Translations under genes and position numbers: made by a program | From: Narcine bancroftii | Taxonomy: Eukaryota | NCBI RefSeq assembly: GCF_036971445.1 | Contig: NC_091470.1 | Span: 189,720,001 to 189,784,000 of the forward strand | Length of the DNA: 64,000 bases | Direction of reading: 5' to 3' | Shown: piece by piece, positions 25,217-57,579 of the stretch | How positions within the stretch are numbered: the first letter of the stretch is position 1 | How the letters are laid out: the number at the start of each line of letters is the position of its first letter | The notes under the pieces: generated by a model | The model's input: only the letters and a program-made list of their open reading frames with translations | Told to the model about the DNA's origin: nothing | Databases searched by the model: none

Positions 25217-25727
25217 AATAAAACAATAGATTGGGTTACCTAAAATTAGAAAAATCAAAATGTTCAGGGCTTTGGATTTAAGGTCATTTCGGAGGAATAT
25301 GATGTGTTATTCCTCAAGTTTACATTTAGCCTCAGCACTCACCTAAATTCCACACTACCTCAGTCCTCACTTTCCAATCCACCAGCCTCTGCAACAGACA
25401 CACCACGCTCCCAACAATTTCAGTGTGATCCCATCACCAGCCACCATCCTCTCCCCAACCCATTCATTGTTTTGCAGGGATCAGTCTCTCAGAGTTCCCT
25501 ACTCTGCTTGTCACACCCTTCTTTCCTCCTGTTGTACCTGCAGAAGGTGTAAAATTTGTCCAGACCACTTCTCACCTCCATCCAGGATCACAAAAAACGT
25601 GGCTTCCCCTCTACCACCCTTTTCTCCTCCATTTTCCACACATCTGCCCTGGCCCCGTTCCATCCCAAGATCCACAAGGACAGGATCCTTCTTGTTCCCA
25701 TCTACTAACCCATCAGACTCCATTTGG

Positions 25728-26080
25728 ACAGGAGATATAGAAAGGTTGTTTCCCATGGTAGGAGAATCTAGAACAAGAGGGTTCAACTTCAGTATTGAAA
25801 GGCATCCACACAGAACAGAAATGCATAGGAATTTCTTCAGCCAGAGGGTGGTAAACCTGTGGAATTGGTCATTAGATGTTTTTGTGGATGCCAGGTTATT
25901 GGGTGCATTTAAGGCAGAGATTGATAAGTTCATATTTAGCCGGGTGATCAAAGTTTATGGGGAAAAGGCCTGGAAGTGGGGCTGAGTGGGACAATGGATC
26001 AGCTCATGAGTGAATTGCAGGGCAGACTCAATGGGTTGAATTGCCAGATTCTGCTCATATGTTTTATGGTCTTGTGGTCT
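25728..26080 (+). mobile_element. CR1 3' fragment
   Basis: RLFPMVGESRTRG and RNFFSQRVVNLWN, followed by a 3' UTR with the TGTTTTATGGTCTTGTGGTCT tail. Confidence 0.8.
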
Positions 26081-26639
26081 ATCCACTTTACTCTTGAGAA
26101 AGGGTCACAACCCAAAACACTGATTGTCCATTTTGACAATAATGAAATTCTCCAACAAACCATTGTTTGTTCTATAATGTTTGCAGTTTCTGTGTGTGTG
26201 CTTTTTTTAAATCTTCACTTGTTCAGCCTTCCTCTCCCAAGAATGTTCTACAGCTTCTATTTAATATTCTAAATTCTGGCCTCAGGCACACAATGTAATC
26301 ACTCTGGTGTCACAAAAATAACTCCAGGGTTCCATCACTCAAAATTCTCTAGTAACTACTCAAATAAGAATGCCATAACCTCAGAGCCAGTCACTTTTGT
26401 ACCAAAGAAGTTTTTGTTTGAAGTGGTGACTTAAAATGATTGAGGCAAAGAGTATTCTACAGGACAAGACCATTGGTCTCTTGGAATTTCGGTCACGGAA
26501 CACAGAAATAAGCCCACCTCATCCAAGCCAATTAAGTTGCTTCCCAGAGTGAGTACCCCTTGCTTGAATTTGGCCCAGATCTCCCTTAACCCCCACCACC
26601 GAACTATTTTTCAATGCACCAATCTGAACACCCTTAAAA

Positions 26640-27090
26640 ATCCATTTCAAATCCTATGCCCACGTATGTCCATGGTCTTGTGCACTGCCAGATCCAAACC
26701 AACCACAAATTGGAGGAACACCTCATATTCCATATGGGCACCCTCCAACTGGGCAGCATTAGTGCCAACTTCTCCAGTTTTCATTAGCTCCCCCATCTCT
26801 CCCCTTATCCTAGCCCCATTTTTCTTTCACTCTCTATCCCCCTCTATCTCCTTTCCTCCACCTCTGCATTGACAGAGCCACTTCCCTCCCCAGATCTACT
26901 GCTACCTTTCCTGTTCTCTGGCACATGTCGATTTATCACCTTTTGCCTGTGCTCCTGCCCTTTCTTCCCTTCTCCCCAGCCTTTTTACTCAGCCACTATC
27001 TTTTGTTTTTGCTTATACCTTAAAGAAGGACTCAGGACCAAAATGCCTTTACTTCTTACGGATGCTGCGAGACCTGCTGAGTTCCTCCAC
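26640..27090 (+). mobile_element. Penelope-like element 3' remnant
   Basis: Similar to 31330-31850 (TTGGAGGAAC..CCTCATATTC..GGGCACCCTCCAAC) with the GATGCTGCGAGACCTGCTGAGTTCCTCCA end. Confidence 0.6.
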
Positions 27091-27559
27091 CATTGCCAAC
27101 AGAATAGTCTTCCTCAGCCCGTTTTCTTTTGCCACATATCCCGCTAACCATTGATCCAGGCACTTATCCAGTCATCATTAATATGTGGTAATGATATCCA
27201 CCCCTACCACTTCCTCTGGTGGCTTGTTCCACATACCCACCAACCTTTGTATAATAGAAAAACCTTCAAAGACCCTTTAAGTTTTTCCCTTCTGATCTTA
27301 AACCTTGTGATTCGACAAAGTCAAGAGTCAGAAAAGCCAAAATATTCTTGGCAGAGGTAAGCGTTTTGCAATCAGGAAGACTCACTTGCACACAGACTGC
27401 CAGAAGATGCACATTCTGTGCCAGAATAAGCTGACGTGGATCAGAATTATAGCTGATTGTTTATTCTACAAGAAATGAGACTCTGAAAAGTAACTTCAAT
27501 TATATTTTTAAATGCTAAAAATAATTTTAAAATTTTCATACTTCATGGTAACAGGCTCA

Positions 27560-27755
27560 TACAGTCCTCAAGCCGATGCCACCCAAATATCCCAATTAAA
27601 CTCCAATACCCATATATTTAAGGGTGGGAGGAAACCAGAGTGCCCTGAGGAAACCCATTGCAGACACAAGGAGAACATACCAATGCCTTAAAGACAGCAC
27701 TGCATTTGAATCTGGGTCACTGGCACTGTAAAAGCATTGTGCTAAACGTGCCACC
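27560..27755 (-). mobile_element. tRNA-derived V-SINE-like element
   Basis: Reverse strand has a tRNA-like head (GTGGCACGTTTAGCACAATGC, B-box-like GATTCAAAT) and the V-SINE core TGTTCTCCTTGTGTCTGC..GGGTTTCCTC.GGGCACTCTGGTTTCCTCCC. Confidence 0.7.
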
Positions 27756-28259
27756 CAAATCTCTGGATCCTAAGCACCTTTGGGAACCCCAGGAGGGAAG
27801 GTGGCACAGGGAGCCCTGGTTGGTGTAGGCAGTTATGGCATTGTCTTAACAGCAGCAGCAATCGGGACTGATTAATTAAATAAATGTGCCAAAGATTAGT
27901 GCCCAGACATCAGATTCAATGTCAAAAAATCCATTTATTGATAATAAACCACCATAAATAACAAGAAAACATTTAAGCAAAGACCTCTGCTGTGAACACA
28001 TCTGTATGCACAGCCAAAAGAGCCAAAATGAACAATACAATTTATATAAATCAACATATATAAAAATAATCCAATTAAAAAAAAGATGAAGTTCAGATGG
28101 GATTCAGCAAAGTAACAAATTACAAACATTTTGCATTAAAGAAACAAGTACGAGAGTGATCAGGCAAAACTGGTATCGGTGCTACAAGGTTAGGTTCCCT
28201 GTGGGCTCTGTTGCATCTTAGCACAGATGTGTTTGCGAGCTATTTCACTCTGTAGTCTT

Positions 28260-30181
28260 TTAATCCACCTCCTCAATGGTCGGTCCCGAAGATGTCGCAC
28301 TCCCAGCCTGGGCACGACAGGACTCCCCTGGGGCTGCCCCTTGGTACAGTTTGGCAACGATGGGATTACAAACCTTTTCCAGCTGTTTCTGCTGGTGCTC
28401 AAATTCTTCCTTCTCTGCCATCTGATTTCTCTCCAGCCATGATATTGTCTGATTGCACGAGTCAATTACCTTCTTCTTGTCTTCTTCACTGACCTTACTT
28501 GCCAACTTCTCATCCTCCACGGTACTCTTCATGCTGAAGGCGTACGACTCCAGGGAGTTCTTGGCTGCAACTTTCTGCCACTGCATTTCATCCTCATTCT
28601 TGTACTTCTCTGCATCCTGCACCATTCTGTCAATTTCCTCCTTACTCAGCCTGCCCTTGTCATTGCTGATGGTGATCTTGTTTGTTTTCCCAGTGCTCTT
28701 GTCAACAGCAGAAACATTGAGGATGCCATTGGCGTCGATGTCAAAAGTCACCTCGATCTGCGGAACACCACGAGGGGCAGGAGGGATGCCACTCAACTCA
28801 AATTTGCTCAGAAGGTTGTTGTCCTTGGTCATCGTTCTCTCACCCTCATACACCTGAATGAGGACGCCAGGCTGGTTGTCAGAGTATGTGCTGAAGTTCT
28901 GTGTCTGCTTGGTGGGGATGGTGGTGTTCCTCTTGATGAGTGCTGTCAATACACCACCGGCTGTTTCCAGACCCAATGACAGAGCAGCAACATCCAGGAG
29001 AAGCAGATCCTGAATGTTGTCTGATATTTCCCCCGTCAGAAGAGCCGCTTGGACAGCTGCCCCGTAAGCCACTGCCTCGTCGGGGTTGATGCTCTTGTTC
29101 AGCTCCCTGCCGTTGAAGAAATCTTGCAGCAGTTTCTGGATCTTGGGGATTCGGGTGGAACCCCCAACCAGGACAATTTCCTGGATCTGGGATTTGTCCA
29201 ATTTGGCATCTCTTAGGGCTTTCTCCACCGGCTCCAGAGTGCCTCTGAACAGGTCAGAGTTCAGTTCCTCAAAACGAGCCCGGGTGATCGAGGTGTAAAA
29301 GTCAATCCCCTCAAACAGAGAGTCAATCTCAATACTGGCTTGGCTGCTGGAAGACAGGGTTCTCTTTGCCCTCTCACAAGCTGTCCACAGCCTCCTCACT
29401 GCCCGCTTGTTCTGGCTGATGTCCTTCTTGTATTTCCGCTTGAACTCCTCAATGAAGTGATTGACCATGTGGTTGTCAAAGTCCTCTCCTCCCAGGTGGG
29501 TGTCACCTGCCGTGGATTTCACTTCAAAGATCCCATCATCGATGGAGAGAATGGACACATCGAAGGTGCCACCACCCAGGTCAAAGATGAGAACATTGCA
29601 CTCACCCTTGCCCTTCTTGTCCAGCCCGTAGGCAATGGCGGCTGCAGTTGGTTCATTGATGACACGCAGGACATTGAGGCCAGCTATCACACCAGCGACT
29701 TTGGTCGCCTCGCGCTGGGAGTCGTTGAAGTAAGCAGGTACTGTGATAACAGTATTGGTGACACTGGAGCCCAGGTAAGCTTCAGCGATCTCCTTCATCT
29801 TGGTCAGCACCATGGAGGAAATTTCCTCTTGGTAAAAGGTTTTCTTCTCCCCCTTGTATTCCACCCTCACCTTGGGCTTCCCCGAGTCACTCAGCACCTG
29901 GAAGGGCCAGTGCTCATGTCGATCTGGACCATAGGGTCATCGAATCTCCTGCCGATGAGTCTCTTGGCATCAAAGACAGTGTTGGCCGGGTTCATGGCTA
30001 CCTGGTTCTTGGCCGCGTCACCAATGAGCCTCTCGGTGTCGTTGAAGGCCACTTAGCTGGGGGTGGTGCGGTTTCCCTGGTCATTGGCGATGATCTCCAC
30101 CTTGCCATGCTGGAAGATGCCCACACAGGAGTAGGTGGTGCCCAGGTCGATGCCAATGGCCGTTCCCTTGGATGCAGGCAT
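28260..30181 (-). pseudogene. hsp70: Intronless cytosolic, inducible-type HSP70 pseudogene
   Basis: ATG at 30181 gives [20 protein letters not shown]. Codon 43 is TAA (30055-30053) in place of the Tyr of TTPSY. A 1-nt deletion lies near 29914. The remaining 545 aa are open with [21 protein letters not shown] and the terminal [14 protein letters not shown] on the minus strand at 27934-27939. Confidence 0.93.
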
Positions 30182-30284
30182 CTCTGTCCTTTCACCCACA
30201 TCACTGAAGGGGTTTCTTTGTAGTCACAGGCGAGTCTTCGATCTCCACCGCTACTTGTAGCTGGTACCACTGACGGCCTCTGCT

Positions 30285-31120
30285 CCTTTTATGCACAACT
30301 CCTTGGCAAGGGTGGCACTCCAGGCTTGATTGATTACTGCCTCGACCAATAAGAACGTTGTCCGTGACTCACTGTGGAAACTCAGAGAAACTAAGGGGAC
30401 GTGACCAATGACAACTCAGCGGCGGCGGGAGTTCGAGAGCCTTCTGTAAAATACGGTGATCGACAGCGGCAGCAGCCAATGAGCATTCCATAGGCTGCAG
30501 CATGTCGCAGGGAGGTAGGTGAGGACTCGGGGGAGCAGCCAATGGTAGAAAAGCACAGTGCCCCACCGAGGATGATGGACAGCGAGTGGAGCCAATAGGA
30601 GCATGGGTGGGCCAGGCTCCATCGACGGGTTGGACGAAGCTTCTGGAAGTGGCGGCCAGGATGAAGCTAATGGAATGGGTCAGAAAGGTGGGAGGAGGCC
30701 ATGAAGGGTGGCGGCCGGGATCCCGCACACGGGGAAGCAGCTCATGGAGCCGGACGTTGCCCTTATTCTCTCAGTCTTAGAGAAGCCATGGTTTTTAGGG
30801 GCTCCTTTGTGAGGAGTCGTCGTTCGGCTGTGGTCAAGAAGAATTTGTGGGTACATCTGCACTGGACAAGTTGGAGGATATTCCCGGCAGCTCTTTGACC
30901 ATGTTCATTGTGAGGAAGGGTCCTGGACCTTCTAGAACCATCCACAGACTGTCCTGCCCAAGTGAGCTGGGCCAGAAGGGTCATCTCTCCTTTCAAGGTT
31001 TCAACTTCCTTTCATCCTCAGGGAATGATGCAGTAAAATTGGATGGACCGGATAGACCAACTGTTTCCGGCTGTAAAGGCAAACAAAGGCATTGGCCCTG
31101 ACATGGAACATTCCAGAAGG
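30285..31120 (-). promoter_or_regulatory. HSP70 promoter: TATA-like box, multiple CCAAT boxes, heat-shock elements
   Basis: CATAAAAG on the minus strand near 30286-30293. CCAAT at ~30346, 30405, 30476, 30539 and 30592. Perfect three-unit HSEs GAAgcTTCtgGAA (30636-30648) and GAAcaTTCcaGAA (31106-31118), and partial HSEs near 30432 and 30926. Confidence 0.8.
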
Positions 31121-31149
31121 AAGATGCTGCCCTTGGCCCTACGCTCCTC

Positions 31150-31850
31150 CGTCATCACCATTCGGGGCCCCGAACAGTCCTCGCCAGTGAAGCAACGCCT
31201 CCCTTGCGAGTCTGCGCGGCTCATCACAACAGCCAGTGCTCCCCATTATGGTCCCGTCTACGTCGGACAGACTGGGTGCGTGCTGGGAGATGGTTTCGCT
31301 GAGAACCTCGGCTCTGACGCCACAATAGAGTGGATCTCCCAGCGGCCACCCATTTCAATTCCCCGTCCCATTCCCTTATTGATGTGTCTGTACATGGTCA
31401 CAAGCATCGCCAGACTGAGACCACCCTCAAATTGGAGGAACAACACTTCCTCTTCCATCTGGACACCCTCCAACTGGATGAAATTGGAGGAACAACACTT
31501 CCTCTTTCATCTGGGTGTCCTCCAACTGGATGGCATTAACATCGACTTCTCTGGGTTTTAAATCTTCTCCCCACCCCTCTCCCCAGCATTTCTTTCCCCC
31601 ATCAGCTTCCTGCATGCTCTGTCTCTTTCCTTTTCCCTCTGACTCTTTCACACAGACAAAATCAATTCTCACCTCTCCCTTTATCATATCCAATTAACAC
31701 TATTTGTTGGTGTGGACTCTTTCCCTGGCCAGATTTCTGGTTTTTTGATTTTTAATTCCTTGACCAAGTGCTTAGGCCTGAAATGCCAGCAAATATATCT
31801 TCATCTCCTCAGGATGCTACATTAACTGCTGCTCCTCCAGCATTATGGTA
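31150..31850 (+). mobile_element. Penelope-like element fragment (GIY-YIG endonuclease C-terminus)
   Basis: YVGQT..L..FAE and HFNSPSHSL..KLEEQHFLFHL..LQLDGINIDFS, with an internal ~51-bp tandem duplication at 31430-31531. Confidence 0.75.
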
Positions 31851-31909
31851 GAACAGTACAGGGCCTTGATGTTGTGCTGACTTAGATATTCCCACCAAAA
31901 AAAAACTAA

Positions 31910-33640
31910 AAGCTAACCCTGGAAATTATAGGCTGGTGAGCCTGACATTAGTAGTAGGTAAATTATTGGAAGGTGTTCTAAGAGGGTGGATATACAATTA
32001 TTTGGATAGCCAGAAACAGATTATGGGATGTCAAAATGGCTTTGTGCATGGTGGGTCGTGTTTAATCTTTTAGAGTTTTTGAGATTACCAAGAAGGTAGA
32101 TGAAGGAAAGGCTGTGGATATTGTCTACATGGAGTGATAAGGTCCCACATGGGACATTAGTCAGGAAGGTTCAAACGCTAGGTATCCAGGGTGAAGTGAA
32201 CTGGATTCAACAGTGGCTGGATGGGAGAATCAGGGAGTGGTGTTGGAAGATTGCTTCTCAGACTGGAGGTCTGAGTGGTGGGCCTCAGGTGGGACCATTG
32301 TTGTTTGTCATCTATATCAATGATCTGGATAATAAGGTGGTAAATTGGATCAGCATGTTTGCAGATAACGCTAAGATTGGAGGTGTGGACAGCGAAGAGG
32401 TTTTCAATGCTTGCAAAGGAATCTGGACCAGCTGGAATAATAGGCTGAAAAATAGTAGATGGAATTTAATGCAGACAAGTGTGAGATGTTGCATTTTGGA
32501 AGGACAAACCAAGAAAGAATGGACGCGGTTGATTGTAGGGCATTGAGGAATATGGTAGAACAGAAGGATCTGGGAATACAGATCCCTGAAAGTGGTGTCA
32601 CTGGTGGATAGGGTTGTAAAAAGTTTTTGGCATATTGGCCTTCATAAATTAAAGTATTAAATATAAGAGTTGTGTTACAAGATCAAACCAGCAACCACAA
32701 AGAAGGCAGATCACACGGGTAAAGATGAACAATTACTTTATTAACAAAATTTCACCTTCAAACTTTAATTCAAAATCCCCCCCCCCCACCCTTTATAACA
32801 ATGCCCACTGGTTAATATACAAATTTCTATAACAGTGTAAAACTGATAAATTCCCCAGCCTAAATATAACATATATAATCAAAGTCTAAGGTATATTCCC
32901 AACTGTCCCACAGAAAAAAACTTAAGACACAAAATACATAAGGCTCACAAAACTTTCATTGCAATCGAAGTAAAGATCGTAAACAAAATTCAGTTTGTTT
33001 GGTAAATACGCAACAAAGAACTCTGTAACAGTTGGGATGTTATGGTAAAGTTGCATAAGGCATTGGTGAAGCCAAATGTAAAGTATTGTGTGCAGTTCTG
33101 GTTTCCTGACTACAGGAAAGATGTCAATCAAATAGAAAGGTTGCAGAGAAACTTTACTAGAATGTCACCTGGATGTCAGGCAAAGGTTAAACAGGTTAAG
33201 AATTTATTCCCTGGCGTGTAGAAGAATGAGGGAAGATTTGACAGAGGTATTTAAAATAATGAGGGGAATAGATAGAGTAAATGTAGATAGGCTTTTTCCA
33301 CTGAGGGCAGGTGAGATCCAAACCATATAGATAGGCATTTTCCACTGAGGGCAGGTGAGATGACATGGGCTAAGAGTGAAAGGGGAAAAGTTTAAGGGGA
33401 ACATGAGGGGGAACCTTCACACAGAGAGTGGTGGGAGTGTGGAGTGAGCTGCCAGCTGAAATGGCAAATGTGGGCTCAATTTTAATATTGAAGAAGAATT
33501 TTGACAGGTACATGGATGGGAGGGGTATGGAGGGCTATGGACTGGGTACAGGCCAGTGAGACTAAGCAAAAAAAATGGTTTGGTACAGAATAGAAGGGCC
33601 GAAGGAGACTTTTTCCGTGCTGTATGGTTGTTTGGTTCTA
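31910..33640 (+). mobile_element. Degenerate CR1 LINE ORF2/3' end
   Basis: DKVPHG, GPLLFVIYINDLD and MFADN motifs plus a CR1-type 3' region. Interrupted by a solo LTR. Confidence 0.82.
32673..33030. mobile_element. 358-bp solo-LTR-like insertion inside CR1
   Basis: Termini TGTTACA...TGTAACA with a 4-bp TSD GTTG at 32669-32672 and 33031-33034. Confidence 0.78.
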
Positions 33641-33719
33641 AACACTAACTATCTCGTAACACTTATTTTTCTTTCATCTATGTGCTGGTCTCAGAGTCTC
33701 TAAAATGCCCCTCCTGTTG

Positions 33720-33937
33720 TGGGTCCTTGGAATACATTGCCACAGAGGGTAGTGGGGGCGGATTCATTGGATAGATTTAAGAGAGAGTTGGATAAGGCTT
33801 TTGTGGGCAGGGGAGTTAAGGGTTATGGGGATAAGGCTGGGATTGGTTATTGAAAGGGAAAGATCAGCCATGATCCGATAAATGGCGGTGCTGGCTCGAA
33901 GGGCCATTTGGCCTACTCCAGCACCTATTGTCTATTT
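33720..33937 (+). mobile_element. CR1 3' end fragment
   Basis: TGGAATACATTGCCACAGAGGGTAGTG...GATCAGCCATGAT...GGCTCGAAGGGCC...CCTACTCC 3' UTR pattern. Confidence 0.7.
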
Positions 33938-34149
33938 GCCGTGCATGGCCCGGTTGGTGGGTCAGTGATTGAACAGTGGGCTAAATGAAATAAATACTGA
34001 TACATGGACATTATGTAATTTAAGTTTTAATTATGTGAAATTTCAAGGTCGTTCATGTGTGTTTGTGGCAGAGGAATGGTGCCTTTTCTCTCTCCAACCT
34101 TTGCTGCTGCTCTGTCAGTTGTTTTCCCCACTAACTTTGACAAACCCAA

Positions 34150-35000
34150 CTCCATGACTGCCACCATTTTCTGTGATACTTCAAAAATGTCTCTCCTGCA
34201 ATGGTTTCCTTTAAAGGGATTAACTTAACAAATTCCTCAATAATGTCAACACTTGACCTTATTCCTCAAAGACTGCAAGTTGAGCAGTGTCTTTTAAATA
34301 TTTGCTTTCATCAAGCACGATGGAAAATTTGGAAATTTTCATAGTGTCCTTTAAACCACCTCTGACAACTGCTGACATTTCTTTGATTTGCCGTGTGAGT
34401 GTTCTTCGAGAGAGGCTAGCAGGTGAGAATAACAATTCTTTTCAGGACAATGTCCACAACTGCCAACAAGCATTCCTTCACAAAATCGCCATCTCCAGAT
34501 TCTATTTATTGTCATTGTAATGTGATCATCTTCATATTACATGAAATTGCTTTTGTCTGCTGGAAGGCAGACAGATTCACCATCAGCAGAAATTGCCTGA
34601 AGCACTTCTTTCCAATCAGAGGGAAAAGCAAAAGAGTGTCGTCGTCCCCACCCCCCCCACCCCACCCAGAGTCGCTGAGTGTCTGTAGATTTTCCTCCAG
34701 TGTTCCCACAGCCATGTAGGGAAAAGGCTTAATATTTCCTGCTATCAGCTTCAATACTACATGACTTGCATGTGGATTGCTTCTCATTTCCACACACTTC
34801 TGAAAAATGAACGTTGTTTTTCCATGCCTTCTTTCCGTCTACAAACTTCATTTGTCCTAGCTTGTCCACTCAATTCCTTGAATTTTGCATGCTTTGTTTT
34901 ATAGGGACGCTTGATCTCGAACCCCTTGTTCACACCAACACTTTCATTGCAAATGAAGCATACAGATTGTAGCGCGACCGAGGGCACTCAACCACAGAGA
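34150..35000 (-). mobile_element. hAT (Charlie/Buster, GTF2IRD2-like) transposase remnant
   Basis: ORF 34784-34987 has the BED-finger-like CFICNESVGVNK..IKRPYKTKH. ORF 34512-34793 has ASHVV..LIA...KPF. Confidence 0.6.
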
Positions 35001-35235
35001 AAGTACAACATGCTTTTATTCAATAAGAATAGCATACATGGTCTGTGGACTGAACTGGGGTTTTGGCGGGGGTCCAGGGTTTATATCAGGATATGCAGGG
35101 GGAGGAGCCAGGCCTTAGAGCATCGCACCAGTATTGAATTCCCAGTTCACGACATTCACCCCTTCATTTTGAATGAAGCCTGTGAGTGAAGACAGAGAAC
35201 ATCGGATAGTCTAGTCAAAATTTTTTTTAGAATAT

Positions 35236-35628
35236 TTACAAGTTCAGCCTGTCAGGAGGTCTGGAAATTGAGCAGATTTGGTTGGCTGCCCCTGGTCCTG
35301 GGCCTCCTGACCCTCCTGTGGTTCCAGAGTTGGGCCGTGGGTGATCTGGCTCTGGTTGAGGGGTGGCTGGAGCCACTTCTTGCGACAGCTCACCTGCGCT
35401 CCTTGGCGCTTCTCCAGAAACCCTGAGAAGGTCAGAGTCCTGGCCCCTTGGGGTGGTGGTCTCACTTCTGGTGGGTGCCATGTCCATGATCGAGACAGTG
35501 TATTTCCTGCCATCTAGGTTTGCCACGTAGGCGTAAGTGGGGTTGGCATGGAGTAGGTGCACCTTCTCGACCAGGGGGTCGGATTTGCTCCTCCTCACAT
35601 ACTTTCGGAGCAGTTGGGCCACCTCCAA
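35236..35628 (-). mobile_element. Gypsy LTR element fragment of a second family (integrase C-terminal region)
   Basis: LLRKYVRRSKSDPLVEKVHLLHANPTYAYVA..DGR..TVSI.D.AP, ending with RPPDRLNL. LTR-like sequence lies just downstream (~35020-35190). Confidence 0.6.
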
Positions 35629-38074
35629 TGACCTGGCCAGTAGTACATTGTATCGGACTCTGGCTTTACCCTACCCTCAATTTGGTCTATGTGTCGTCTG
35701 AGTCCAGCGTGCTCACTGAATGAAGTGATAGGAGAAGGTATTCGGTTTCACAATCAGTTTATTACATAGCACAAGAATAAAGCTTAACAGAGCTCTGATT
35801 CAGTCGTTAGTTCATAGGTCACCTGCTCGGTGAGCTATTTCCCAAGACTGACCCTTACCGTCCAGTCTCTTCTGTTTATATAGATCAACCTTGTTACACT
35901 GACCACGAGTTGGTTTTCTTTGATAGGCTCCTTGCCTAAGATTTATCTCAAGCAATTTCCTGCTCTGCAATTATCTGTGGTGTAGCCCTCCCAGGCCAGA
36001 ACATTCTGTTGCTTTAATCAACACCTGCCGTGTACCCTTATGACTCCTCATTCCAACACAAGTGGTTTATTTATTTTGTTTTACTCTGACATTCTCAGTC
36101 ATGGTACTCTTATCACTTATCCTTGCAATACACTTATCTTCCTGTCACTGGCCTGGTTCAGAATAAATGACAGTCCTTTTGGTTCCTCCAACCTCATCCT
36201 GTCTAACTTCTCCTATCTGCTATCCTGTTACTCCCATGTGTGCCTTTGATGCTTTCTCTCTGGACTTGTGCTTTACAATTAGCAGTTTAGTGTAACCTTG
36301 GGGATGAAAGTATTTTCTCTCTTTGTATTTGGAGTCAGCAAATTCTACATATACTATAATCAGCCAACTTTTCTACATACTGTGGCTGTTACTTAATTAC
36401 ATTAATATTTCCCCTAAACAGTATAATTGAAGTACATAGTAAATTGTTACATAGCAATGGATTAATGAATACATAATGAATAGTACATAGGCATATTTTC
36501 CATGATTACTTAACGCCTTGGTTCCAACAGTTGTCAGGCAGCTCCGCACTGCCCTTCTCCAGCAACCGCTGCCGAATGTACTTGGACCGCACCCCCAATG
36601 ACCAGAGCATCCCGGATCTGCTCATCCTCCCGTTCCTCGCGAGTGCTTGTAGGAGAGGGCATAGTCCTCAATGGACTCACCAGGCCGCTGCTTCCATTGT
36701 GAGAGTTGATGCCTCAATGGGATGACGTATTGGGGCCTTCAGCATCTTAACAGCCCCGCTGCCTAAGTCATACAGTCTCTGCTAATCGGGAATCCTTGAG
36801 GTCTGATGCGAGAGAGGAGCGCCGACCTCTTTAGCTCATCCATTGAGTATGTAGAAATTGCGTTTTAAAATAACTACACAGAAATCGTTGGAAGACTCAA
36901 CATGAGTTTATTCAAGCAAGAAGCTTCCAGAGAACAGGATACAAGTTGAAGGCTAATTCTCACCTCTCATACTGAGCCAGAGCCATATCCTAATGCCTAC
37001 CTGATCTCTTTAATCCAATAGTGCTAACTGACTCCAACCTGCTGGACATGATCTAAAGGCCGCAATAAGCATCCAGCACCACTCAGTCCCTGAATGCATT
37101 GTTTCTGCTTTAAAGTGTTGGCCACCATTGTCAACAAGAATTTAAGATCAGGATGAAACTAGCCATTCACGTGTGTAAATTGGAAACCAGAAATCAGGCA
37201 GCCAGAGACTCGATACTGATGTGTCCTGTGAGCAACTCTTGCAGACTTCTGTTGATATTTTTGTATACCAGAAACTTGTTCTTAATTATATCTGGTACAT
37301 GAGATTAAATGGCCAACAACAAATCATTTCCCTGTCTTTAGGAAGAGGATATGCAGAATGTAAAAAAAACTGTAAACACCTTCAAAGAAATATAATCCAA
37401 TTTGTATGCAGGAAAATGCCTTAAATGCCTGTGTGTTCTTTGAATGAGGTTCAAACAGTACTAGTGAGGTGACCCTGTCTACCCACCACTGTTACCCTCA
37501 TTCCCGCTGACGTGACTCAATATAGACTCAATGTTTTGGACTTTGTGGTTTGTTCCTGCCCCTTTTTGTATCCTGACAAAAGCGCAACTTTAACAAGTGG
37601 CTGATCCTGCTTGTGGCTGACAGGGACATTGTGCAAACTCTTCTGGGGGCAGAGGGTTGATGAGGAACATCGCGGGCTTCAACAGCGTTCTTTATTGAAT
37701 AAAGTTACCATGCTGGGGTGAAAAAAAATCTCACCAACAATCTAATCATTATCAATTAAATGGCTAAGAAAGAAATAACGTAAAGACAGAGAACCAAATA
37801 AAACGGAAGAAACTTGATTCTGAATAATCTCACATCGTAGTGAAACTTTTCAACATTGAACTGCAACACAAAGACCTCATGACATACAAATAAAATACAT
37901 GAATACAACTTAAACTCACTCTTGTGTTGAGTCGACATCTTCAAAAGGAATATAAGGAATGAAATATTAAATAAATACAAATAGATGATTAACTGAATTT
38001 TAAAAAAAGTATATAAACGGAAGAAACAGAAATAAAGAAACTGAAAACTCACCTTGGTTTGATTTCCCGTAAAT

Positions 38075-38172
38075 GTTGGCGGAGCGCTTCGCGCAAGACT
38101 GTCGCAGCACCCGCGATTGGGACTGGACCTGGATTCGAATCCTGCGCTGTCTGTCAGGAGTTCGTACTTTCT
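38075..38172 (+). mobile_element. tRNA-derived SINE head
   Basis: A-box-like TTGGCGGAGCG and B-box-like GGATTCGAATCC, followed by GCTGTCTGTCAGGAGTT as in the SINE at 27560-27755. Confidence 0.6.
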
Positions 38173-38277
38173 GTGGAGCAGGCCTCATCTCCTCATTAAA
38201 CCCTGAACCACAATACTGTGTACCCTTGGGAGGAGGATTTAAACAGGGCATTGATCACATTGTTTAAATGGGTTTCA

Positions 38278-38280
<3 letters not shown>

Positions 38281-38312
<32 letters not shown>
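38281..38312. repeat. (CT)n microsatellite
   Basis: Perfect CT dinucleotide run. Confidence 0.95.
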
Positions 38313-38317
<5 letters not shown>

Positions 38318-38884
38318 CCTATCTCCATCCTTAATTTTTTTGGTACCTCGGTCCCTCTATCCTCTCTGTATCTCACTTTTTCTCTTATTCTCCTTTCTCC
38401 ATCTCTCTGCTCTGTTCTGACTGTTGCTCTCTGTCTAGGTCCCTCTATCTCTGGTGCTCTCTAACCTCTCACTGTTGCTCTCTCTTTCTCTCTATTGTTC
38501 CTTCTCTTCCCTCTATCATCTCTCTTTATGCTTCTCACACTCCACACCACCCCCCACAATTCTGCACCTCCATTCATTGTCGTGGACTGGATGAACCTCC
38601 TGACTGCTGGGTCTGATCACAGTGATTTCAGATCCTGTCTCATTGGACGATGCCTCTGCCCATCCCTCCCGGGGAAACTCCCTGTGACTGGGCGTGAGGC
38701 TGAGTCATTCCAACGGAAGACCAAGCTTGAAAAGGAACCTGAAACTGATAGTGGTGGATCTGTGTGTGGCTGGTCAGGCAGTGATACTGGGGAGAGGGGC
38801 AGAGACACAGTCAGAGCAGGGCATGCGGCTACAGGGCTGGGAGGCACAGGGGTACAGTGCTGGGTGGTACGGGGTGAACACAGC

Positions 38885-39390
38885 AGTGGGACACAGGGTA
38901 AAGGGCAGTGGGAAATGGAGAAAATGGCAGTGAGAAATGGGGTAAAGGGTGGTGGGACATGGGGTAAAGGGCAGTGGGAAATGGGGTAAAGAGTGGTGGG
39001 ACATGGGGTAAAGGGCAGTGGGAAATGGGGTAAAGGGTGGTGGGACATAGGGTAAAGGGCTGGGAAATGGGGTAAAGGCAGAGGGACGTGGGAGTATAGC
39101 ACAGCAGGACAGGCTATAGGGTAATGGGATGGGGCACAGGGCAGTGGGGATTGGGGGTATAGGGCAATTGGATCTGAAGGTACAGGTCAGTGGGGCATGG
39201 GGGATACAAGTAATTGGGGCATAGGGGTAGAGGGCAGTGGGGCATGGAGTTACAGGGCAGTGGGATATGGGGGTACAGACCAGTGGGGTACAGGGATGTA
39301 GGGCAGTGGGACACGAGGGTGCAGGGCAGTGGGACTCAGGGGTACTGAGAAGCCAGGAATGGGGGTACAGGACAATGGGCCACAGGGGTA
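38885..39390. repeat. G-rich 22-bp minisatellite, degenerating rightwards
   Basis: Alternating GGGGTAAAGGGCAGTGGGAAAT and GGGGTAAAGGGTGGTGGGACAT units. Confidence 0.85.
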
Positions 39391-39394
39391 CAGA

Positions 39395-40510
39395 TTTATT
39401 GTCAGAATACATACACAACATCACATATATCAGTGAGATTTTTTTCCTGCAAGTCAGACAGAATTTCTACTTATCGGTCATGCAAAAAAACTGTACTCAG
39501 GATAAGATAGTGTATACAAAAGATAAAATGTATAACAAGGAAGAAATGTAACCAAACTGACTGTGCAATACAGGAAATAAATATTCAGTAATAAATAATG
39601 TCTAAAGTTCAAGTCCTTAAATGAGTCTCAGAGTTGAGGACTCTGAGGATGGAGGGGTAGCAGTTGTTCCTCAACTTGCTGGTGCGAGTCTGGTGGAACT
39701 AATACCTCTTCCCTTGTGCTGGGTTTGTGGATCCTTGATGGTTGCTACAGCTCTCCCATGGCAGTGTTCCATGTAGATTTTCTCAATGGTGGGGAGGTTT
39801 TTTGCCTTTAATGTCCTGGACTGCATCCACTACCTTTTGCAGGGCTTTCCACTCAGAGGCATTGGTGTCCCCAGTTTGGCCAAATTTCCAATGTCAAGCT
39901 AAACCTCCACAAACTCCTGAGAAAGTTGAGGCACTGACGTGCTTTCTTTACAATGACATTTGTGTGTTGGGTCCAGGAAACATCTTCCGAGATAGTAACT
40001 CCCAGGAACCGAAATGTGCTCTCCATCTCCATCTCTGATGCCCAATTATTACTGGATTGTCTACCTTTGGTTTTTCCTTCCTGAAGTCAACAATCAGCTC
40101 CTTAGTTTTGGTGACATTGAGTGTGAGGTTGTTGTTGCACCATTCAGTCAGGTTTTCAATCTCCATTCTCTGTGCTGACCCATCCCTTTCCTTTATACAA
40201 CTCACTCCGTGGTATCACCAGCGAATTTGTAGATGGTGTGATTGTCGTACCGAGCTATGCAGTCATAAGTGTGAAGCAGGCAGAGTCGAGCATAGCCCTG
40301 TGGTGCTCTAGAACTGATGGACATTCTAGAGATGTTCTTACCAATCCTCACTGATTGTGGTCTGGAGGTGTGGAAATCCAGGATCTAATTACACAGGGGG
40401 GTGCTGAGTCCCTGGCCTTGGAGTTTGCTGATCAGTTTTGAGGGGATAATGGTGTTAAATGATGAACTGTAGTCGATAAAGAGCATCCTGATGTAGGCAC
40501 CTTTGCAAGA
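39395..40510 (-). mobile_element. Rex1/Babar-type LINE fragment
   Basis: [25 protein letters not shown] and WCNNNLTLNVTKTKELIVDFRK. Confidence 0.75.
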
Positions 40511-41500
40511 TTCCTGATGCAGGGTCTTGATCTGAAACATTACCTTACACCTTTTGCATAATGGGGTTGTGGAGGAGAGGGGTGGCAAAGGTCAGAGTCA
40601 CAGAGTTTAACAGCACAGAAACAGGACCATCAGCCCATCTCCTCCATACCATACTACCCAGCTGGTCCCACTGGCCTGCATTTGGCCCACTTCCCTCCAC
40701 ACCTTTCCTAACCATGGTCCCTGCCTCTACCCCTTCATCCGGCAGCTTGTTTCACAGCACCCCCACCACCACCCACTGGCCCCATTCCTCTCATTTCTGA
40801 ACCACTCATTCTCTGTTTCTCTCCACAGATGCTGTATGACCTGCTGAGTGTTTCCTCCATTCCCAGTTTTATCTCCGTGTTGCTGGAACTGCAGTTTTTT
40901 GGGGGTTTATTTTCCTTTATAGCTCATCTTCTTCCTCTCCCTCACCCTCTCACCTCCCCACATTGTTCCTTCAGCCATCTGTCTCCGTTAACACAGCACA
41001 CCCTCTCCCCTCCACTCTTCCTGTCTCCCATTCCACTCTTCTCCATATTACCCTCTCTACCTCCCACCCTTTCCTCTCCTGCCTTGACTTTGCTCCCCTC
41101 TTTCTCCTCGCCTCCTCCCATCTCTCTACCCTCCTTCCCCTTGACTTCCTGCCTCCCCTACCACTCTCTCCTCGCCCTGCCTTTATTGTTCTCTTCTCCC
41201 CCTCTCCCTTTTCTCCAGAGTCTGTGTCTGGGGTGTGTCCCCAGGGTCTGTGTCTCGGTTCTGTCCTGGGGGGGGGGGTCTGTCCCCAGGATCTGTGTCT
41301 GGGGGGGGGGGGTGTGGGGTGACCCAGGGTATGTGTCTGGGGGGTGTCCCCGGGATCTGTGTCTGGGGGTTGTCGATAGGGTCTGTCTCTGTCCCTGGAG
41401 GTTGTGACCCGGGGTCTGTGTCTGAGGGTCTATGTCTAGTGGGGGGGGGGGGGAGGGGGGTGGTGTCGCCAGGATCTGTTACAGCGACTCCCTCATCCAT

Positions 41501-41740
41501 ACTTTCGATTTCTGTGATCGTAACCTCGCTCACACAACCTTGCCCGGCAACCGATGACGCGATATCGACTCTATTTTCTGATTGGGCTGATGAAGGTATT
41601 TTTGCAACAATTTTTCCCAGTTTCTTAACCTGTTCAGACTTCCTCTGCCCAGACACTAATGACGCTGGCGCAGCGCGTAGTCTGATTGGAGCTGCAGGTG
41701 CCGCGGACCAATCAACGTGCAGCGTGGGGATATAACTGCC
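41501..41740 (+). promoter_or_regulatory. MHC class I promoter: ISRE plus two tandem S-X1-X2-Y modules and a TATA-like box
   Basis: ISRE ACTTTCGATTTC at 41501-41512. Module 1: S GTAACCT 41520-26, X CCCGGCAACCGATG 41543-56 overlapping TGACGC, Y CTGATTGG 41578-85. Module 2: S TTAACCT 41625-31, X CCCAGACACTAATG 41648-61 overlapping TGACGC, Y CTGATTGG 41682-89. TATAA near 41731. Confidence 0.85.
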
Positions 41741-41849
41741 CGACCTCGATCGAAAGTCGCAGTTTCCCGGTCAGCTGCGAGCGGAGTTTGACCGGTCACT
41801 GGCGGAGGGCTCGTGAATTCGGGACCACCCAATCAGGGAAGGAGTCACG

Positions 41850-41898
41850 ATGCTGCGTCTGCTTCTGATGACCCTCCTGTGTGGGGGGTTCTCCGCAG
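41850..41898 (+). CDS. MHC class I heavy chain exon 1 (signal peptide MLRLLLMTLLCGGFSA)
   Basis: ATG downstream of the SXY promoter, hydrophobic 16-aa leader, phase-1 donor CAG|GTGGGT that joins in frame to the alpha1 exon (G|CC = Ala). Confidence 0.85.
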
Positions 41899-41990: not shown

Positions 41991-42300
41991 GGGGAGGGGG
42001 CGGGCACCCTTTCCCCACCAATGGGGAGGGGGCGGACACCCTTTCCCCACCAATGGGGAGGGGGCGGACACCCTTTCCCCACCAATGGGGAGGGGGCGGA
42101 CACCCTTTCCCCACCAATGGGGAGGGGGCGGACACCCTTTCCCCACCAATGGGGAGGGGGCGGACACCCTTTCCCCACCAATGGGGAGGGGGCGGACACC
42201 CTTTCCCCACCAATGGGGAGGGGGCGGACACCCTTTCCCCACCAATGGGGAGGGGGCGGACACCCTTTCCCCACCAATGGGGAGGGGGCGGACTCTCCTT
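41991..42300. repeat. 32-bp minisatellite (~9-10 copies) in MHC I intron 1
   Basis: Unit GGGGAGGGGGCGGACACCCTTTCCCCACCAAT. Confidence 0.95.
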
Positions 42301-42532
42301 CCCCAGCAATGGGTGAGGGGGGGGGGAATGGACACTCCTTCCCCACCCATTGCTGGGGAAGGAGAGTTGCCCCCCCATTGGTGGATGGGGAGGGGGCAGA
42401 CACCCCTTCCCCACCAATGAGGGGGTGGACATCTCTTCCCCACCAATGGGGGGCTTCACCGCCACTCACTAACTTGCTTGACAGCTTGGAAGTCACTGCC
42501 GCCACGCCCAAGGGCCCGAAGCTGGTGGAAGG

Positions 42533-42700
42533 GTGTCACTGCCCCTCCCCCAGCCGGGCCCCAGTCCTGGGTGGTCACCGCCCCTCCCCCAGCCAGGCCC
42601 CAGTCCTGGGTGGTCACTGCCCCTCCCCCAGCCAGGCCCCAGTCCTGGGTGGTCACTGCCCCTCCCCCAGCCAGGCCCCAGTCCTGGGTGGTCACCGCCT
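42533..42700. repeat. 39-bp minisatellite (~4 copies)
   Basis: Unit GTCACTGCCCCTCCCCCAGCCAGGCCCCAGTCCTGGGTG. Confidence 0.92.
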
Positions 42701-43244
42701 GTGAGAAACCCAGCGCACTTATTAAATAATCTCTCAGAGTCGATAAGCTAAGCGATATAACCTTTTATTCAACGTTCTTGCAAGAGCGGGTCTCCTTCAG
42801 AGACGACACACTCACTGATATTCAACAACCTTTTTATACATTTCTTTGTGTTAATAACCATTTCATTTAATTGGTTAGTTAACTGAGTAATTAATAGGTT
42901 AGTTTAACCTATCAAAAGCTGTTCCGCTCCTCGTTTTAAAGCCCGCCCTTGTTTACTCTCCCATTCCCATAATTTTTGCAATCCCAACTCTTATTTAATC
43001 TTATCATTTGGAGTGGTGCTTTGTCAGATGTTCCTGTTCTTTTGCAGTTTTTTTAATATATCAAGTTGCCCTTGCCTGCAATCTATTGCAGGAACTGTCC
43101 TTCCTTTGTATTCTAGCAGACACCCCTCTTCCCCCTTTTCTTCTCTAATGCCTCATCTCTGTGCAGCCATTGTTAACACTGATGATTGATGATTACATTT
43201 TTCTGAAACAGTACTTTGGATAATTCCCACACCACCCCTCCCAC

Positions 43245-43480
43245 TGCAGGGGCCGAGTGCTGGGAGTTGCAGCCGGCCCGCAGGAGCCGAGTGCTGTGGG
43301 TCGCCGCCGGCCCTCCCCCACAGGGGCCAAGTGCTGGGGGTCGCCGCCAGCCCTCCCCCACAGGGGCCGAGTGCTGGGGGTCGCCGCCAGCCCTCCCCCA
43401 CAGGGGCTGAGTGCTGGGGGTTGCCGCTGGCCCTCCCCCGCAGGGTTCCAGTGCTGGGGGTCACTGGCCCTCCCCCACCA
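43245..43480. repeat. ~40-bp degenerate minisatellite
   Basis: Unit CAGGGGCCGAGTGCTGGGGGTCGCCGCCAGCCCTCCCCCA. Confidence 0.85.
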
Positions 43481-43952
43481 AGGTCCAATGAAGTCATTGC
43501 CCCAACGCTACCAGAGCTGAGACTGGAAGTCTTCACTGCTCCCACTACCCTACCAGGGCCTCATCCTTGGATTCATCGGCCCTCTCGCCAAGGACCAAGT
43601 CCTGGGTGATTACTGTCCCTCTCCTACCATGGCTTAGTATTGCGGGGGGGGTGCAATACCCTTCCCCTACCTGGGCCTAGTGTTTGGGTCACCGCCCCTC
43701 CCTCTCCAAGGCCTAGGACTGGGGTTCAATGCCACACCCCAACCAGGGCCATAGCCTTGATGGTCACTGTCCCTCCCAGAATAGGCCCCAGTCCTGCAAA
43801 TTACATTACTTCTCCCCCCACCAGTTCTGATGCATTGGGGGAGGGGGGGGTCACTATCCCTTCTCCACAAGGGCATCCCCTCCCACACCATTGCCTCATT
43901 AGGGTCAACTTCCCACCCAACCAAGGGCCCATTCCTGGGGTTGGGAGGTTTT

Positions 43953-44230
43953 CTGCCCCTCCCCCACCAGGGCAGAGGCCGAGGAGTCACTGCCCCTCCC
44001 CCACCAGGGCAGAGGCCGAGGAGTCACTGCCCCTCCCCCACCAGGGCAGAGGCCGAGGAGTCACTGCCCCTCCCCCACCAGGGCAGAGGCCGAGGAGTCA
44101 CTGCCCCTCCCCCACCAGGGCAGAGGCCGAGGAGTCACTGCCCCTCCCCCACCAGGGCAGAGGCCGAGGAGTCACTGCCCCTCCCCCACCAGGGCAGAGG
44201 CCGAGGAGTCACTGCCCCTCCCCCACCAGG
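43953..44230. repeat. 37-bp minisatellite (~7.5 copies)
   Basis: Unit CTGCCCCTCCCCCACCAGGGCAGAGGCCGAGGAGTCA. Confidence 0.95.
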
Positions 44231-44290
44231 GTCCAATCCTGGTGGTCACTTCCCCGCCCCCTGCAGGGGCCCGGTGTTGGCGGCCACTGC

Positions 44291-44925
44291 CCCGCCCCCG
44301 CAGGGGCCCAGTGATGGGGGGTCCCGCCCCCGCAGGGGCCCAGTGATGGGGGGTCCCGCCCCCGCAGGGGCCCAGTGATGGGGGGTCCCGCCCCCGCAGG
44401 GGCCCAGTGATGGGGGGTCCCGCCCCCGCAGGGGCCCAGTGATGGGGGGTCCCGCCCCCGCAGGGGCCCAGTGATGGGGGGTCCCGCCCCCGCAGGGGCC
44501 CAGTGATGGGGGGTCCCGCCCCCGCAGGGGCCCAGTGATGGGGGGTCCCGCCCCCGCAGGGGCCCAGTGATGGGGGGTCCCGCCCCCGCAGGGGCCCAGT
44601 GATGGGGGGTCCCGCCCCCGCAGGGGCCCAGTGATGGGGGGTCCCGCCCCCGCAGGGGCCCAGTGATGGGGGGTCCCGCCCCCGCAGGGGCCCAGTGATG
44701 GGGGGTCCCGCCCCCGCAGGGGCCCAGTGATGGGGGGTCCCGCCCCCGCAGGGGCCCAGTGATGGGGGGTCCCGCCCCCGCAGGGGCCCAGTGATGGGGG
44801 GTCCCGCCCCCGCAGGGGCCCAGTGATGGGGGGTCCCGCCCCCGCAGGGGCCCAGTGATGGGGGGTCCCGCCCCCGCAGGGGCCCAGTGATGGGGGGTCC
44901 CGCCCCTCCCCTGCAGGGGCCCAGT
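44291..44925. repeat. 32-bp minisatellite (~19 identical copies)
   Basis: Unit CCCGCCCCCGCAGGGGCCCAGTGATGGGGGGT. Confidence 0.96.
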
Positions 44926-47900
44926 GCTGTGGGGGGGGGACCCCAAAATCCAGCAGCATTAGATATGCACCACAACCCAGGGTTACTTAAACAAAAATAG
45001 TTTTTAAATTATAATTGAACAAGAAAATAGAATTAAACGTTAACTTATTACTTAACCTACTTAAACACAGGTGTGTGTAATGGTAGAAAAGTTCTTTGGA
45101 TCACAATCCAATCTCACTAGTTGCAGGCAATTCTTGTACTGTGCACAGATGTTAGCATGAACAAAGTTCGCCAGTCTTTGATGCTTAACAGGGAAATGGT
45201 TACCACTCAGGAGAGAGATTTGTTTTGTTCCAGGACATCCACAACTGATTCCTGTTTAATCAGTCTTCAGGGTTTTCCAGATGATCCTCCTTCTTTCAGA
45301 TCACCTTTCAGACAGCTTGTCTTCTCCTTTGACCAGGCAGACTTCCAAAAGTTTGCCAGCTTTGTCCTTCTGGAACTGATTTCTGTCTCCTGTCTCTCTG
45401 TTTCACACCCTCCTTCTCTAAGATCAAAACTGTTCTGTCTGCCTGCAAAAGTCACATGCTCTCCCTGGCAAGCTGTATGCTGCAACTTTGTTGCTCTTTT
45501 TGCAAAAAGCACTCTGCAAAAGTCCTGCAAATATTCTGTGTTTTAAAATGTTTGTGTGCTACCTCCTTCCCAAAACACTTCTAAATACTCTGTCACACTT
45601 TCCCCTTCTAAGGGAATTTTAACAAGTTAAAATTCAGTTATAACTAAACTGTCTTAAAAATCACTTAAGAGATAACTATACACAGTATATAACATGTACA
45701 CTACAGTAATTCAATTTCAAGAGTATTTCTATAAATGATCAATTTTAGCAACTTGACAAACAATCGGCAATCACATATTTGCACCTCTGATATGGTTAAT
45801 TTGCAGATCATATTCTTGTAATATCAAACTCCATTTTAACAATCTTCTGTTTTTAATCTTCATTTGATCCAGAGGATTGTGGTCAGTGAATATAACAATT
45901 GGTTCATGAGAGGTCTCAAGATGTATGTCAAAATTCTGCAGAACAAATATGATAGCCAACAGTTCTTTTTCAATTGTGAAATAGTTCCTTTGATGAACAT
46001 AGAAATTTTTTGAAAAGTAGGCAACTGAATGGTCAATTTCATTATGTTTTTGCAATAAAACTGCACCTGCTGCTCCCTCACTGGTGTCCACTGGTACAGA
46101 AAATGGTCAAGTCAAAATCAGGAGATTTTAAACACAGGGTAATGGCATAGCATCTCCTTTAAATTTTCTTACACAGCCTGTCAATCTTTAGTCCACACAA
46201 ATTTCTCCCCCATCTTCAAAAGATTAGTTAAAGGAAGAGTGACCTCAGCAAAATATCTGCAAAAATATCCTGCCATTCCTAAAAACCTTCTCAACGCTTT
46301 GTCATTGGGAATAGGAAACTCAGAAATTGCATTCAACTTATCTTGAATTGGTGCAACTTTGCCATGGCTAACTACATAAACAAAGTATGTTACCGTGGCA
46401 TTTGCAAATTGACTTCTTGCTAAATTAAGAGTTAAGTTTGCTTTGGATAATCTTGCAAACAATTTGTCCAATTCCCTTACATGTTCTTCCCATGGGTCAT
46501 TTTTTGTGACCAAGTCATCAATATAAGCATCTGTATGTGTTAACCCTTGGATTACTGAATTAATCATCCTCTGAAATATTGCAGGAACACTTTTCATGCC
46601 AAAAGGTAACACATTATATATGTATAAACCAGATAATTACAAAAGCTGAAATATTTTTTCCTCTCTCAGTTAAAGGCACACACCAGTAACCTTCAATAAA
46701 TCCAACTTAGTAAGAAATTTAGCGTTGCCAATTTTATCAATACAGTCATCTATTCTCGGAATAGGATAAGCATCTGTTTTAGTTACTGAATTAACCTTCC
46801 TGTCATCTGTACAGAACCTAACAGTTCCATCTGGTTTTGGTACCAGAATACAAGGAGAACTCCAATCCGAGTTCGAAGATCTAATAATATCGGTTCCCCA
46901 CATATATTCCACCTTCTGATCCATGATTTTACATTTGAACGTTTATTTTATATGGGTGCTGTTTTATTGGATTTGCCTCTGCTACATCTACATCGTGGTA
47001 AATCACTGATATGATTTTAGGAACATCAGGGAACAAATTTGTGTATTTCAAAAGAAATCTTTACAACTGTATCTGCTCTTGTAACTTAAGATGGCCTAAC
47101 TTTTTCAATTTTTTCAAAATTGTTGAGTTAGACAGGTGCACAGGAACAATGGTTTCTTTAAAGTTACCCTCACAAGATTCTATTTCCATAATCTTACAAT
47201 CCACCACTTTCTCCACTCTGTCAACAGCCAACACCTCTGGTAAAGATTGTTCTCCACTACCCTTATAATAAGGTTTCATTAACCATTTGCCCTCCAAGTC
47301 ATATCCACAAGCCATTTTTTTAGTCTCCTGTTCAGTTACTGCTTTCTCCCTTTAGTTTACAAGATCTGCATCTATTTTTTGTTGCTGAATTAACTCTTTC
47401 CTTGACAAAGAGAAATCTTTACTCTCACAATGACCCTCCTCTTTCAAAAGTACTGCAGAAGTACTGGGCAAATTTCTCTCAACTCTATTTTCTTCAGCTG
47501 TCATCATTTTCTTAGTCACAGACCTAGTTACCGCACATGCAGGATATATCTCATCACCCTCTCTAACCTCATACTTATTAGGCTGATTTGTCAATCTTAA
47601 AACTGACCCAACTTTATCTTCTGCCAAATCATTCCCCAACAACAATGAGACACCCTGCATGGGTAACTTTGGAATTGGTGTCAGTCCTTTGATCCACAGT
47701 TAAAATACTTTCCAACAACAGTGACTAAGAATTTTAACTGGAACCTATGGTTGTCCCTCCTTTATTGAGACAAAGCCCTTCTGACACAAAAGGCTTGAAA
47801 ACATCCATGACCTCCTTACCAGGTTTGGCACCTCGGCTCTCCTTAAATTCCAATGTTTGAATACATAGTTCTGGTAAAACCTCTTTTTCTCATTTCTTTT

Positions 47901-57020: not shown

Positions 57021-57027
57021 GTTCCAG

Positions 57028-57301: not shown

Positions 57302-57311
57302 GTGTGTGGGG

Positions 57312-57535: not shown

Positions 57536-57579
57536 TGGTGAGGGGGTAGGAGGACAGCACAAGGTGGAGGGGGTCTCCC

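Follow-up and report, generated by a model that had tools for sequence, protein, structure and literature searches.

A broken HSP70 copy beside a probable classical-type class I gene in a possibly rearranged MHC of the ray Narcine bancroftii

An hsp70 gene linked to the major histocompatibility complex (MHC) was reportedly described in Xenopus in 1994, by Salter-Cid. The human class III order, in a table of PMC1309616, is VARS-LSM2-HSPA1A. For elasmobranchs, the PMC10751288 supplement lists 10 HSPA rows in white shark and seven HSP70 rows in sawfish, placed between cchcr1/tcf19 and smx5 (LSM2)/vars1, so that HSP70-MHC linkage in sharks and rays is already known; the main text of that paper does not mention HSP70 (“hsp”, 0 hits), and the catshark rows of its tables carry no labels. 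By the same rows, sawfish HSP70 lies at 3.9–4.2 Mb, the nearest class I row at 12.3 Mb and class Ia, which abuts TAP1, at 17.2 Mb, while white shark HSPA lies at 110.6 Mb and its nearest class I row at 88.0 Mb; HSP70 is thus 8.1 Mb and 22.6 Mb from the nearest class I row, respectively. Here we examine a 64,000-nucleotide stretch of the electric ray Narcine bancroftii (hereafter the window; C5:189,720,001–189,784,000, C5 being contig NC_091470.1, and C9, C17 and C396 other contigs of the same assembly), in which an HSP70 copy and a class I gene lie head-to-head.

The HSP70 copy is broken, the class I gene is likely a working gene of classical type, and their adjacency quite probably arose by recent duplication of a 6.9-kb HSP70 unit from a cluster 0.85 Mb away. 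The two start codons (30181, minus strand; 41850, plus strand) point apart, and no host exon was found in the 11,668 bases between HSP70 and the class I leader, in agreement with a reading made earlier from the letters of the window (the sequence-only reading). Repeats found elsewhere in the DNA read make up 74% of this interval, and one open reading frame in it is a piece of a reverse transcriptase. A spacer of transposon remnants and simple repeats (32099–41456) is followed by the class I upstream or promoter region (41457–41849, plus strand), whose sequence is 74–80% alike in two class I relics, one at C5:190.815 Mb and one at C5:191.076 Mb. We reject a bidirectional promoter serving both genes, because 11.7 kb of repeats separate the genes and the HSP70 promoter has decayed; that leftover heat-shock elements influence a class I gene 11 kb off is unsupported speculation. 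The head-to-head pose is likely without function. The DNA read amounted to ~1.98 Mb in total, with 190.73–191.33 Mb on C5 covered only partly; gene names on C5 were assigned from Pfam domains, translated exons and synteny, and some of the paralogue labels are provisional.

As with mammalian HSPA1A/1B/1L and Xenopus hsp70, the ray HSP70 is intronless and MHC-linked, but it lies outside the class III order. Like the class III clusters of white shark (chr19) and sawfish (chr34), the ray has tandem, single-exon-sized HSP70s of the same clade on its MHC chromosome, with TRIM/A33-like neighbours as in sawfish; it differs in that its cluster lies 6.5 Mb from the TCF19-LSM2/VARS1 slot, among B2M, class Ib and class II genes, and in that the window copy is a pseudogene. 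The class I gene resembles classical class Ia (sawfish XP_051899611; nurse shark 6LUP) in its anchor residues and cytoplasmic tail, whereas its distance from TAP1 is 1.74 Mb, unlike the sawfish gene. Compared with the “compact class Ia region” of Verissimo et al. 2023, the ray has TAP1(+), TAP2(-), PSMB8(-), PSMB9(+) and NOS(+) in sawfish order over a span of about 1.9 Mb, equal to the white shark upper bound, but this span includes class II and class III-derived genes.

The window HSP70 and its relatives

The window HSP70 (28260–30181, minus strand) is an intronless pseudogene of predicted HSPA1 type, whose ~640-amino-acid reading frame is broken by a TAA at codon 43 (about 30053–30055) and by the loss of one base at codon 90 (near 29914); the HSP70s on C17, by contrast, match in eight pieces. 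Its decayed promoter (30182–30660, minus strand) was compared with two intact copies. At -112 TATAAA has become CATAAA, and the proximal heat-shock element (-213) is lost, while the TATA box and this element are retained in both intact copies checked; two distal heat-shock-element-like matches (-263 and -467) remain upstream.

Three intact copies of 640 codons, 1–2 bases apart from each other in sequence, were found at C5 190.570, 190.582 and 190.599 Mb, ~0.85 Mb from the window copy, with the reading frame open in 3/3. These intact paralogues are 100% identical to NCBI Narcine bancroftii proteins, which bears out the earlier assignment of the DNA to a cartilaginous fish. The window copy has 98% DNA identity to the trio, from which it differs by 17 non-synonymous and 14 synonymous changes (3.3% at synonymous sites). 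Polarised against a decayed copy at 190.976 Mb, these changes divide into 13 non-synonymous and 9 synonymous ones on the window branch and 1 and 5 on the trio branch, with 3 unresolved. A further decayed copy, at C5 188.627 Mb, is a 3' fragment only. The window HSP70 sits in a duplicated unit of about 6.9 kb (25232–32098) that matches the units in which the intact trio is repeated (C5:190.57–190.60 Mb) at 91–93% identity and in the same orientation, and this likeness stops at 32098.

In a quick tree of 54 rows, chosen by name from ~240 HSP70 matches and with no human HSPA1A or HSPA8 row, the window HSP70 fell into a clade of elasmobranch HSP70s, among them sawfish and white shark sequences that are apparently MHC-chromosome proteins (SH-aLRT 99). 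A wider HSPA1-type clade including possum HSPA1A and bat HSPA1B had a weak support of 81, while the HSPA2 clade (97) and the presumed HSPA8 clade (98) stood apart from the window HSP70. Judged by its sequence, the window HSP70 belongs to the MHC-linked HSPA1 type, in line with its description as inducible-type in the sequence-only reading. Elsewhere in the genome, C17:133.49–133.52 Mb carries two tandem HSPA8-like genes with introns, which we take to be HSPA8 from their gene structure, and C5:9.42 Mb carries an HSPA2-like gene whose coding region is interrupted by a ~1.5-kb insertion or intron.

The class I gene

The class I gene begins at the ATG at 41850, as the sequence-only reading had it, and extends well beyond the coordinates given there, ending some 2.6 kb outside the window. 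Its exons in the window, all on the plus strand, encode the leader (41850–41898), alpha1 (56326–56586, with Y7, Y59, R84 and the N86 glycosylation site), alpha2 (57028–57301, with T143, K146, W147, Y159 and Y171), alpha3 (60224–60486) and the transmembrane segment (61017–61121); two cytoplasmic exons follow at about 2184–2213 and 2562–2608 of the adjoining stretch. The introns, of which intron 1 spans 14.4 kb, are enlarged by GC-rich minisatellites with units of 22–39 bases in up to 90 copies (window 41991–44926 and 56623–60136).

The eight residues that anchor peptides in classical molecules (Y7, Y59, R84, T143, K146, W147, Y159 and Y171) are all kept in the alignment (8/8), and position 123 is L, not Y/F. 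The protein is 71% identical to sawfish XP_051899611, labelled MHC-Ia in the PMC10751288 supplement. Domain by domain, identity to sawfish Ia is 76/67/73%, and a nonclassical protein of nurse shark reaches 49/31/39%. In the PDB, alpha1 and alpha2 both match the nurse shark structure 6LUP best. These comparisons suggest that the gene is likely of classical type (UAA lineage).

As assembled, the gene has two frame breaks, both in homopolymers: an extra G at the alpha2 acceptor, where a G5 run is one base too long, and a missing C in a C5 run at the start of alpha3. No canonical splice combination restores an open frame in the gene as assembled. Spliced sequence was sought in sequencing runs that we call RNA-like, their RNA nature being a guess with no run on record as RNA. 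The GT..AG spliced joint of alpha3 and the transmembrane exon was observed in 3/3 RNA-like runs and in 0/1 DNA run, and among the loose contig ends one (X1, 17 contigs) joined alpha2 to alpha3 with a run of six C, where the assembly has five, and two others (X2, X3) joined the transmembrane to the cytoplasmic exon. Since the RNA-like contigs carry the sixth C, the break at the alpha3 start is likely an assembly error or an allele. The NCBI model of the gene is a full 343-aa protein. The gene is likely intact and expressed, and the sequence-only reading, in which both genes carried lesions, is partly right: it holds for the HSP70, while the class I gene has, as assembled, two homopolymer breaks of which the RNA-like contigs correct one.

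Genome-wide alpha1, alpha3, promoter and MHC_I searches yielded no other intact UAA-type class I gene, and no second alpha3 variant was present in the RNA-like contigs at 90% likeness among the matches listed. C5 also carries class I relics, namely a frameshifted alpha1 at 191.075 Mb and a leader relic at 190.815 Mb, and a divergent class I gene at 190.367 Mb that by eye resembles UFA rows in the PMC10751288 supplement. The MHC_II_beta model matched nothing, though a beta1 exon is present at 191.373 Mb; as this model misses a real exon, divergent class Ib lineages could likewise have escaped the family searches. An unplaced 60-kb contig, C396, carries two broken UAA-type class I genes (at positions including 59935–60126) and may belong in an MHC gap. 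A broken class I piece at C9:222.775 Mb, with alpha1 and alpha2 contiguous, is 43% identical to the nurse shark nonclassical (UDA-like) protein and is likely a processed pseudogene outside the MHC; the 2023 elasmobranch MHC paper reports no class Ib genes outside the elasmobranch MHC. Fragments resembling endogenous retroviruses occur upstream of the class I relic at 191.076 Mb and within a 106-kb tandem duplication described below.

Gene order of the MHC on C5

TAP1/2, PSMB8/9, BRD2, class II and C4-like genes are all present on C5, and the window region is true MHC, as the sequence-only reading presumed. No HSP70 was found between VARS and TCF19/CCHCR1 (181.97–184.03 Mb) by DNA search (12/12 candidates scored) or protein search (31/31), and both flanks of this empty slot, together with CSNK2B, retain the sawfish order. 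BRD2, B2M, HSP70 and class II lie between the window class I gene and TAP1, and the gap-free class IIA–TAP1 interval has no class I exon.

Along C5, CSNK2B (181.55 Mb) and VARS (181.93–181.97 Mb) are followed by TCF19 (184.035) and CCHCR1 (184.06), both within 184.03–184.08 Mb, the HSP70 fragment (188.63 Mb), the C4-like gene (189.0 Mb) and two facing genes with IgGFc-binding and ZP domains (189.65–189.71 Mb, more closely 189.655–189.71) adjoining the window. After the window HSP70 (189.75 Mb) and class I gene (189.76–189.79 Mb) come a TRIM and then a ZSWIM3-like gene, BRD2 (190.24–190.26 Mb), B2M (190.30 Mb), the UFA-like gene (190.37 Mb) and a gap; then TRIM, the three HSP70s, a CENP-A-like gene (190.63 Mb) and another gap; then GPR139-like genes (190.70–190.72 Mb) and the class I relics. 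Class IIB (191.37 Mb) and IIA (191.40 Mb) precede TAP1 (191.50 Mb, +), TAP2 (-), PSMB8 (191.60 Mb, -), PSMB9 (191.64 Mb, +) and NOS (191.65–191.69 Mb, +), which follows PSMB9 immediately, as it does in the sawfish rows. The sequence has no N from 189.60 to 190.42 Mb, a gap-free 820 kb holding the window, BRD2 and beta-2-microglobulin. Five 200-N gaps occur in the DNA read. Gaps lie at 190.421, 190.661, 191.37, 191.577 and 191.645 Mb.

A GPR139-like receptor array and a duplicated segment adjoin TCF19 at C5:183.85–184.01 Mb, a candidate breakpoint; where the ray has this array, sawfish has POU/NPDC1-like genes and HSP70 beside TCF19. The CENP-A-like histone exon (C5:190.633 Mb) lies 32 kb from the HSP70 trio; in sawfish 2.3 Mb separate HSP70 from the CENP-A-like row, which is found near CYP21A2/TNXB. 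At C5:192.144 Mb, 0.5 Mb past PSMB9, there is a third gene for a proteasome beta subunit. Between the class I gene and BRD2, a ~106-kb tandem duplication of 99.6–99.9% identity (C5:189.894–190.104 Mb) is either very recent or false. LSM2 was not located by an LSM search, the Pou model had no match in the MHC, and some family models missed genes: the TAP model missed the true TAP genes, A2M_recep missed C4 and Val_tRNA-synt_C was empty.

Origin and meaning of the adjacency

The order and route of moves that we infer are as follows. The inducible HSP70 cluster would first have left its ancestral VARS1–TCF19 place in the ray's lineage and then settled near BRD2 and beta-2-microglobulin, among class Ib genes. 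The region is rich in TRIM, GPR139-like and ZSWIM3-like duplicates, and segmental duplication within it may have spread HSP70 copies to 188.63, 189.75 and 190.98 Mb, where they decayed. The class I gene would have reached the spot earlier and separately from the HSP70 unit: its paralogous flanks are 74–86% alike and those of HSP70 87–93%, so the HSP70 copy likely arrived later. No HSP70 lies beside the 5' end of either other C5 class I relic. Because the class III slot is empty in the ray and filled in white shark and sawfish, the tight class I-HSP70 linkage would be derived, not primordial; the HSP70 cluster and the only intact class Ia-type gene both appear to have been relocated.

The sequence-only reading had instead tied the adjacency to the primordial MHC, as a preserved ancestral tight linkage. 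The window HSP70 is indeed of the MHC-linked lineage, and HSP70 and class I matches apparently lie on one contig in 5/8 other species giving both, so linkage at the chromosome level is old. However, sawfish and white shark HSP70s lie at least 8 Mb from class I, in a slot beside LSM2/VARS1 that matches human, and the window copy was duplicated recently, being close to its source at synonymous sites; preservation of a tight linkage is largely refuted and hardly credible. The same reading had also offered a duplicated cassette of HSP70 and class I, of which the window would hold a decaying copy. Such an origin would fit the presence of several relics of both kinds within 2.5 Mb and the two breaks in the class I gene as assembled. 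Against it, likeness to the trio ends at 32098 and likeness to the class I relics begins near 39300, with no copy covering both; the two duplications differ in age; and the RNA-like contigs show splicing of the class I gene, which is modelled as a full protein. Since no second HSP70-class I pair was found, a cassette is very improbable, and refuted unless another pair sits in an assembly gap.

An assembly artefact is unlikely, whether the window was wrongly joined or the trio piece was misplaced and the real cluster is still in class III. The five gaps, the possibly false tandem duplication and the homopolymer errors in class I are compatible with it, but HSP70 copies occur on at least three gap-separated pieces (188.6–191.0 Mb), the piece with the window continues without a gap through BRD2 and beta-2-microglobulin and has local duplications in common with the trio piece (96–97% over 7–10 kb), and C4-like, BRD2, B2M and Ib keep sawfish order and strands. 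The map may also be correct and the window gene an “Ia-like” paralogue, with the true class Ia by TAP/PSMB missing from the assembly; this is compatible with the recent HSP70 duplication and alters the class I label only. Paralogues of this kind, remote from TAP, are known from elasmobranchs, with a catshark row 8 Mb from TAP1, the gaps at 191.37, 191.577 and 191.645 Mb could accommodate a missing gene, and L at position 123 points the same way. We consider it doubtful, though with an appreciable chance, given that the IIA–TAP1 interval, the sawfish class Ia site, is gap-free and without a class I exon, that the genome-wide searches gave no other intact UAA-type gene, and that the RNA-like contig matches listed hold no second alpha3 variant.

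Several points weigh against our account of a recent HSP70 duplication beside a working class I gene in a rearranged MHC. The HSP70-class I junction is taken from the assembly, and the 240-kb piece that carries the intact trio is flanked by gaps (190.421 and 190.661 Mb), so the trio's placement depends on scaffolding. Of the 2-Mb VARS–TCF19 interval, 200 kb was read, and a gap there could hide HSP70 genes. The non-synonymous/synonymous ratio on the window branch is ~0.4 rather than 1, from small counts. For the class I gene, the extra G at the alpha2 acceptor lies outside RNA-like contig coverage, and the RNA identity of the runs is a guess. Two outgroup species were compared in detail, both from one paper's table.

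The head-to-head gene pair should not be read as ancestral. Literature searches, mostly without subscription journals, found no report of this ray's MHC or of HSP70 beside class I in elasmobranchs; the remaining point of interest, mildly new and dependent on one gapped assembly, is the rearranged ray MHC. Tentatively, and at somewhat less than an even chance, the ray broke the “regimented” elasmobranch MHC: the whole inducible HSP70 cluster may have moved from class III to the class I/beta-2-microglobulin region, with class II, BRD2 and B2M between TAP1 and the only classical class I gene, which is 1.74 Mb away, and class I reduced to one Ia and one UFA-like gene. Class III rearrangements occur in urodeles (PMC12619710, PMC11850509). 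If the map holds, the ray would depart from the MHC order conserved in elasmobranchs and be useful for studies of class Ia-TAP-PSMB8 haplotype co-evolution. If true, its rearranged MHC would offer a natural test of whether class Ia-TAP co-evolution requires tight linkage.

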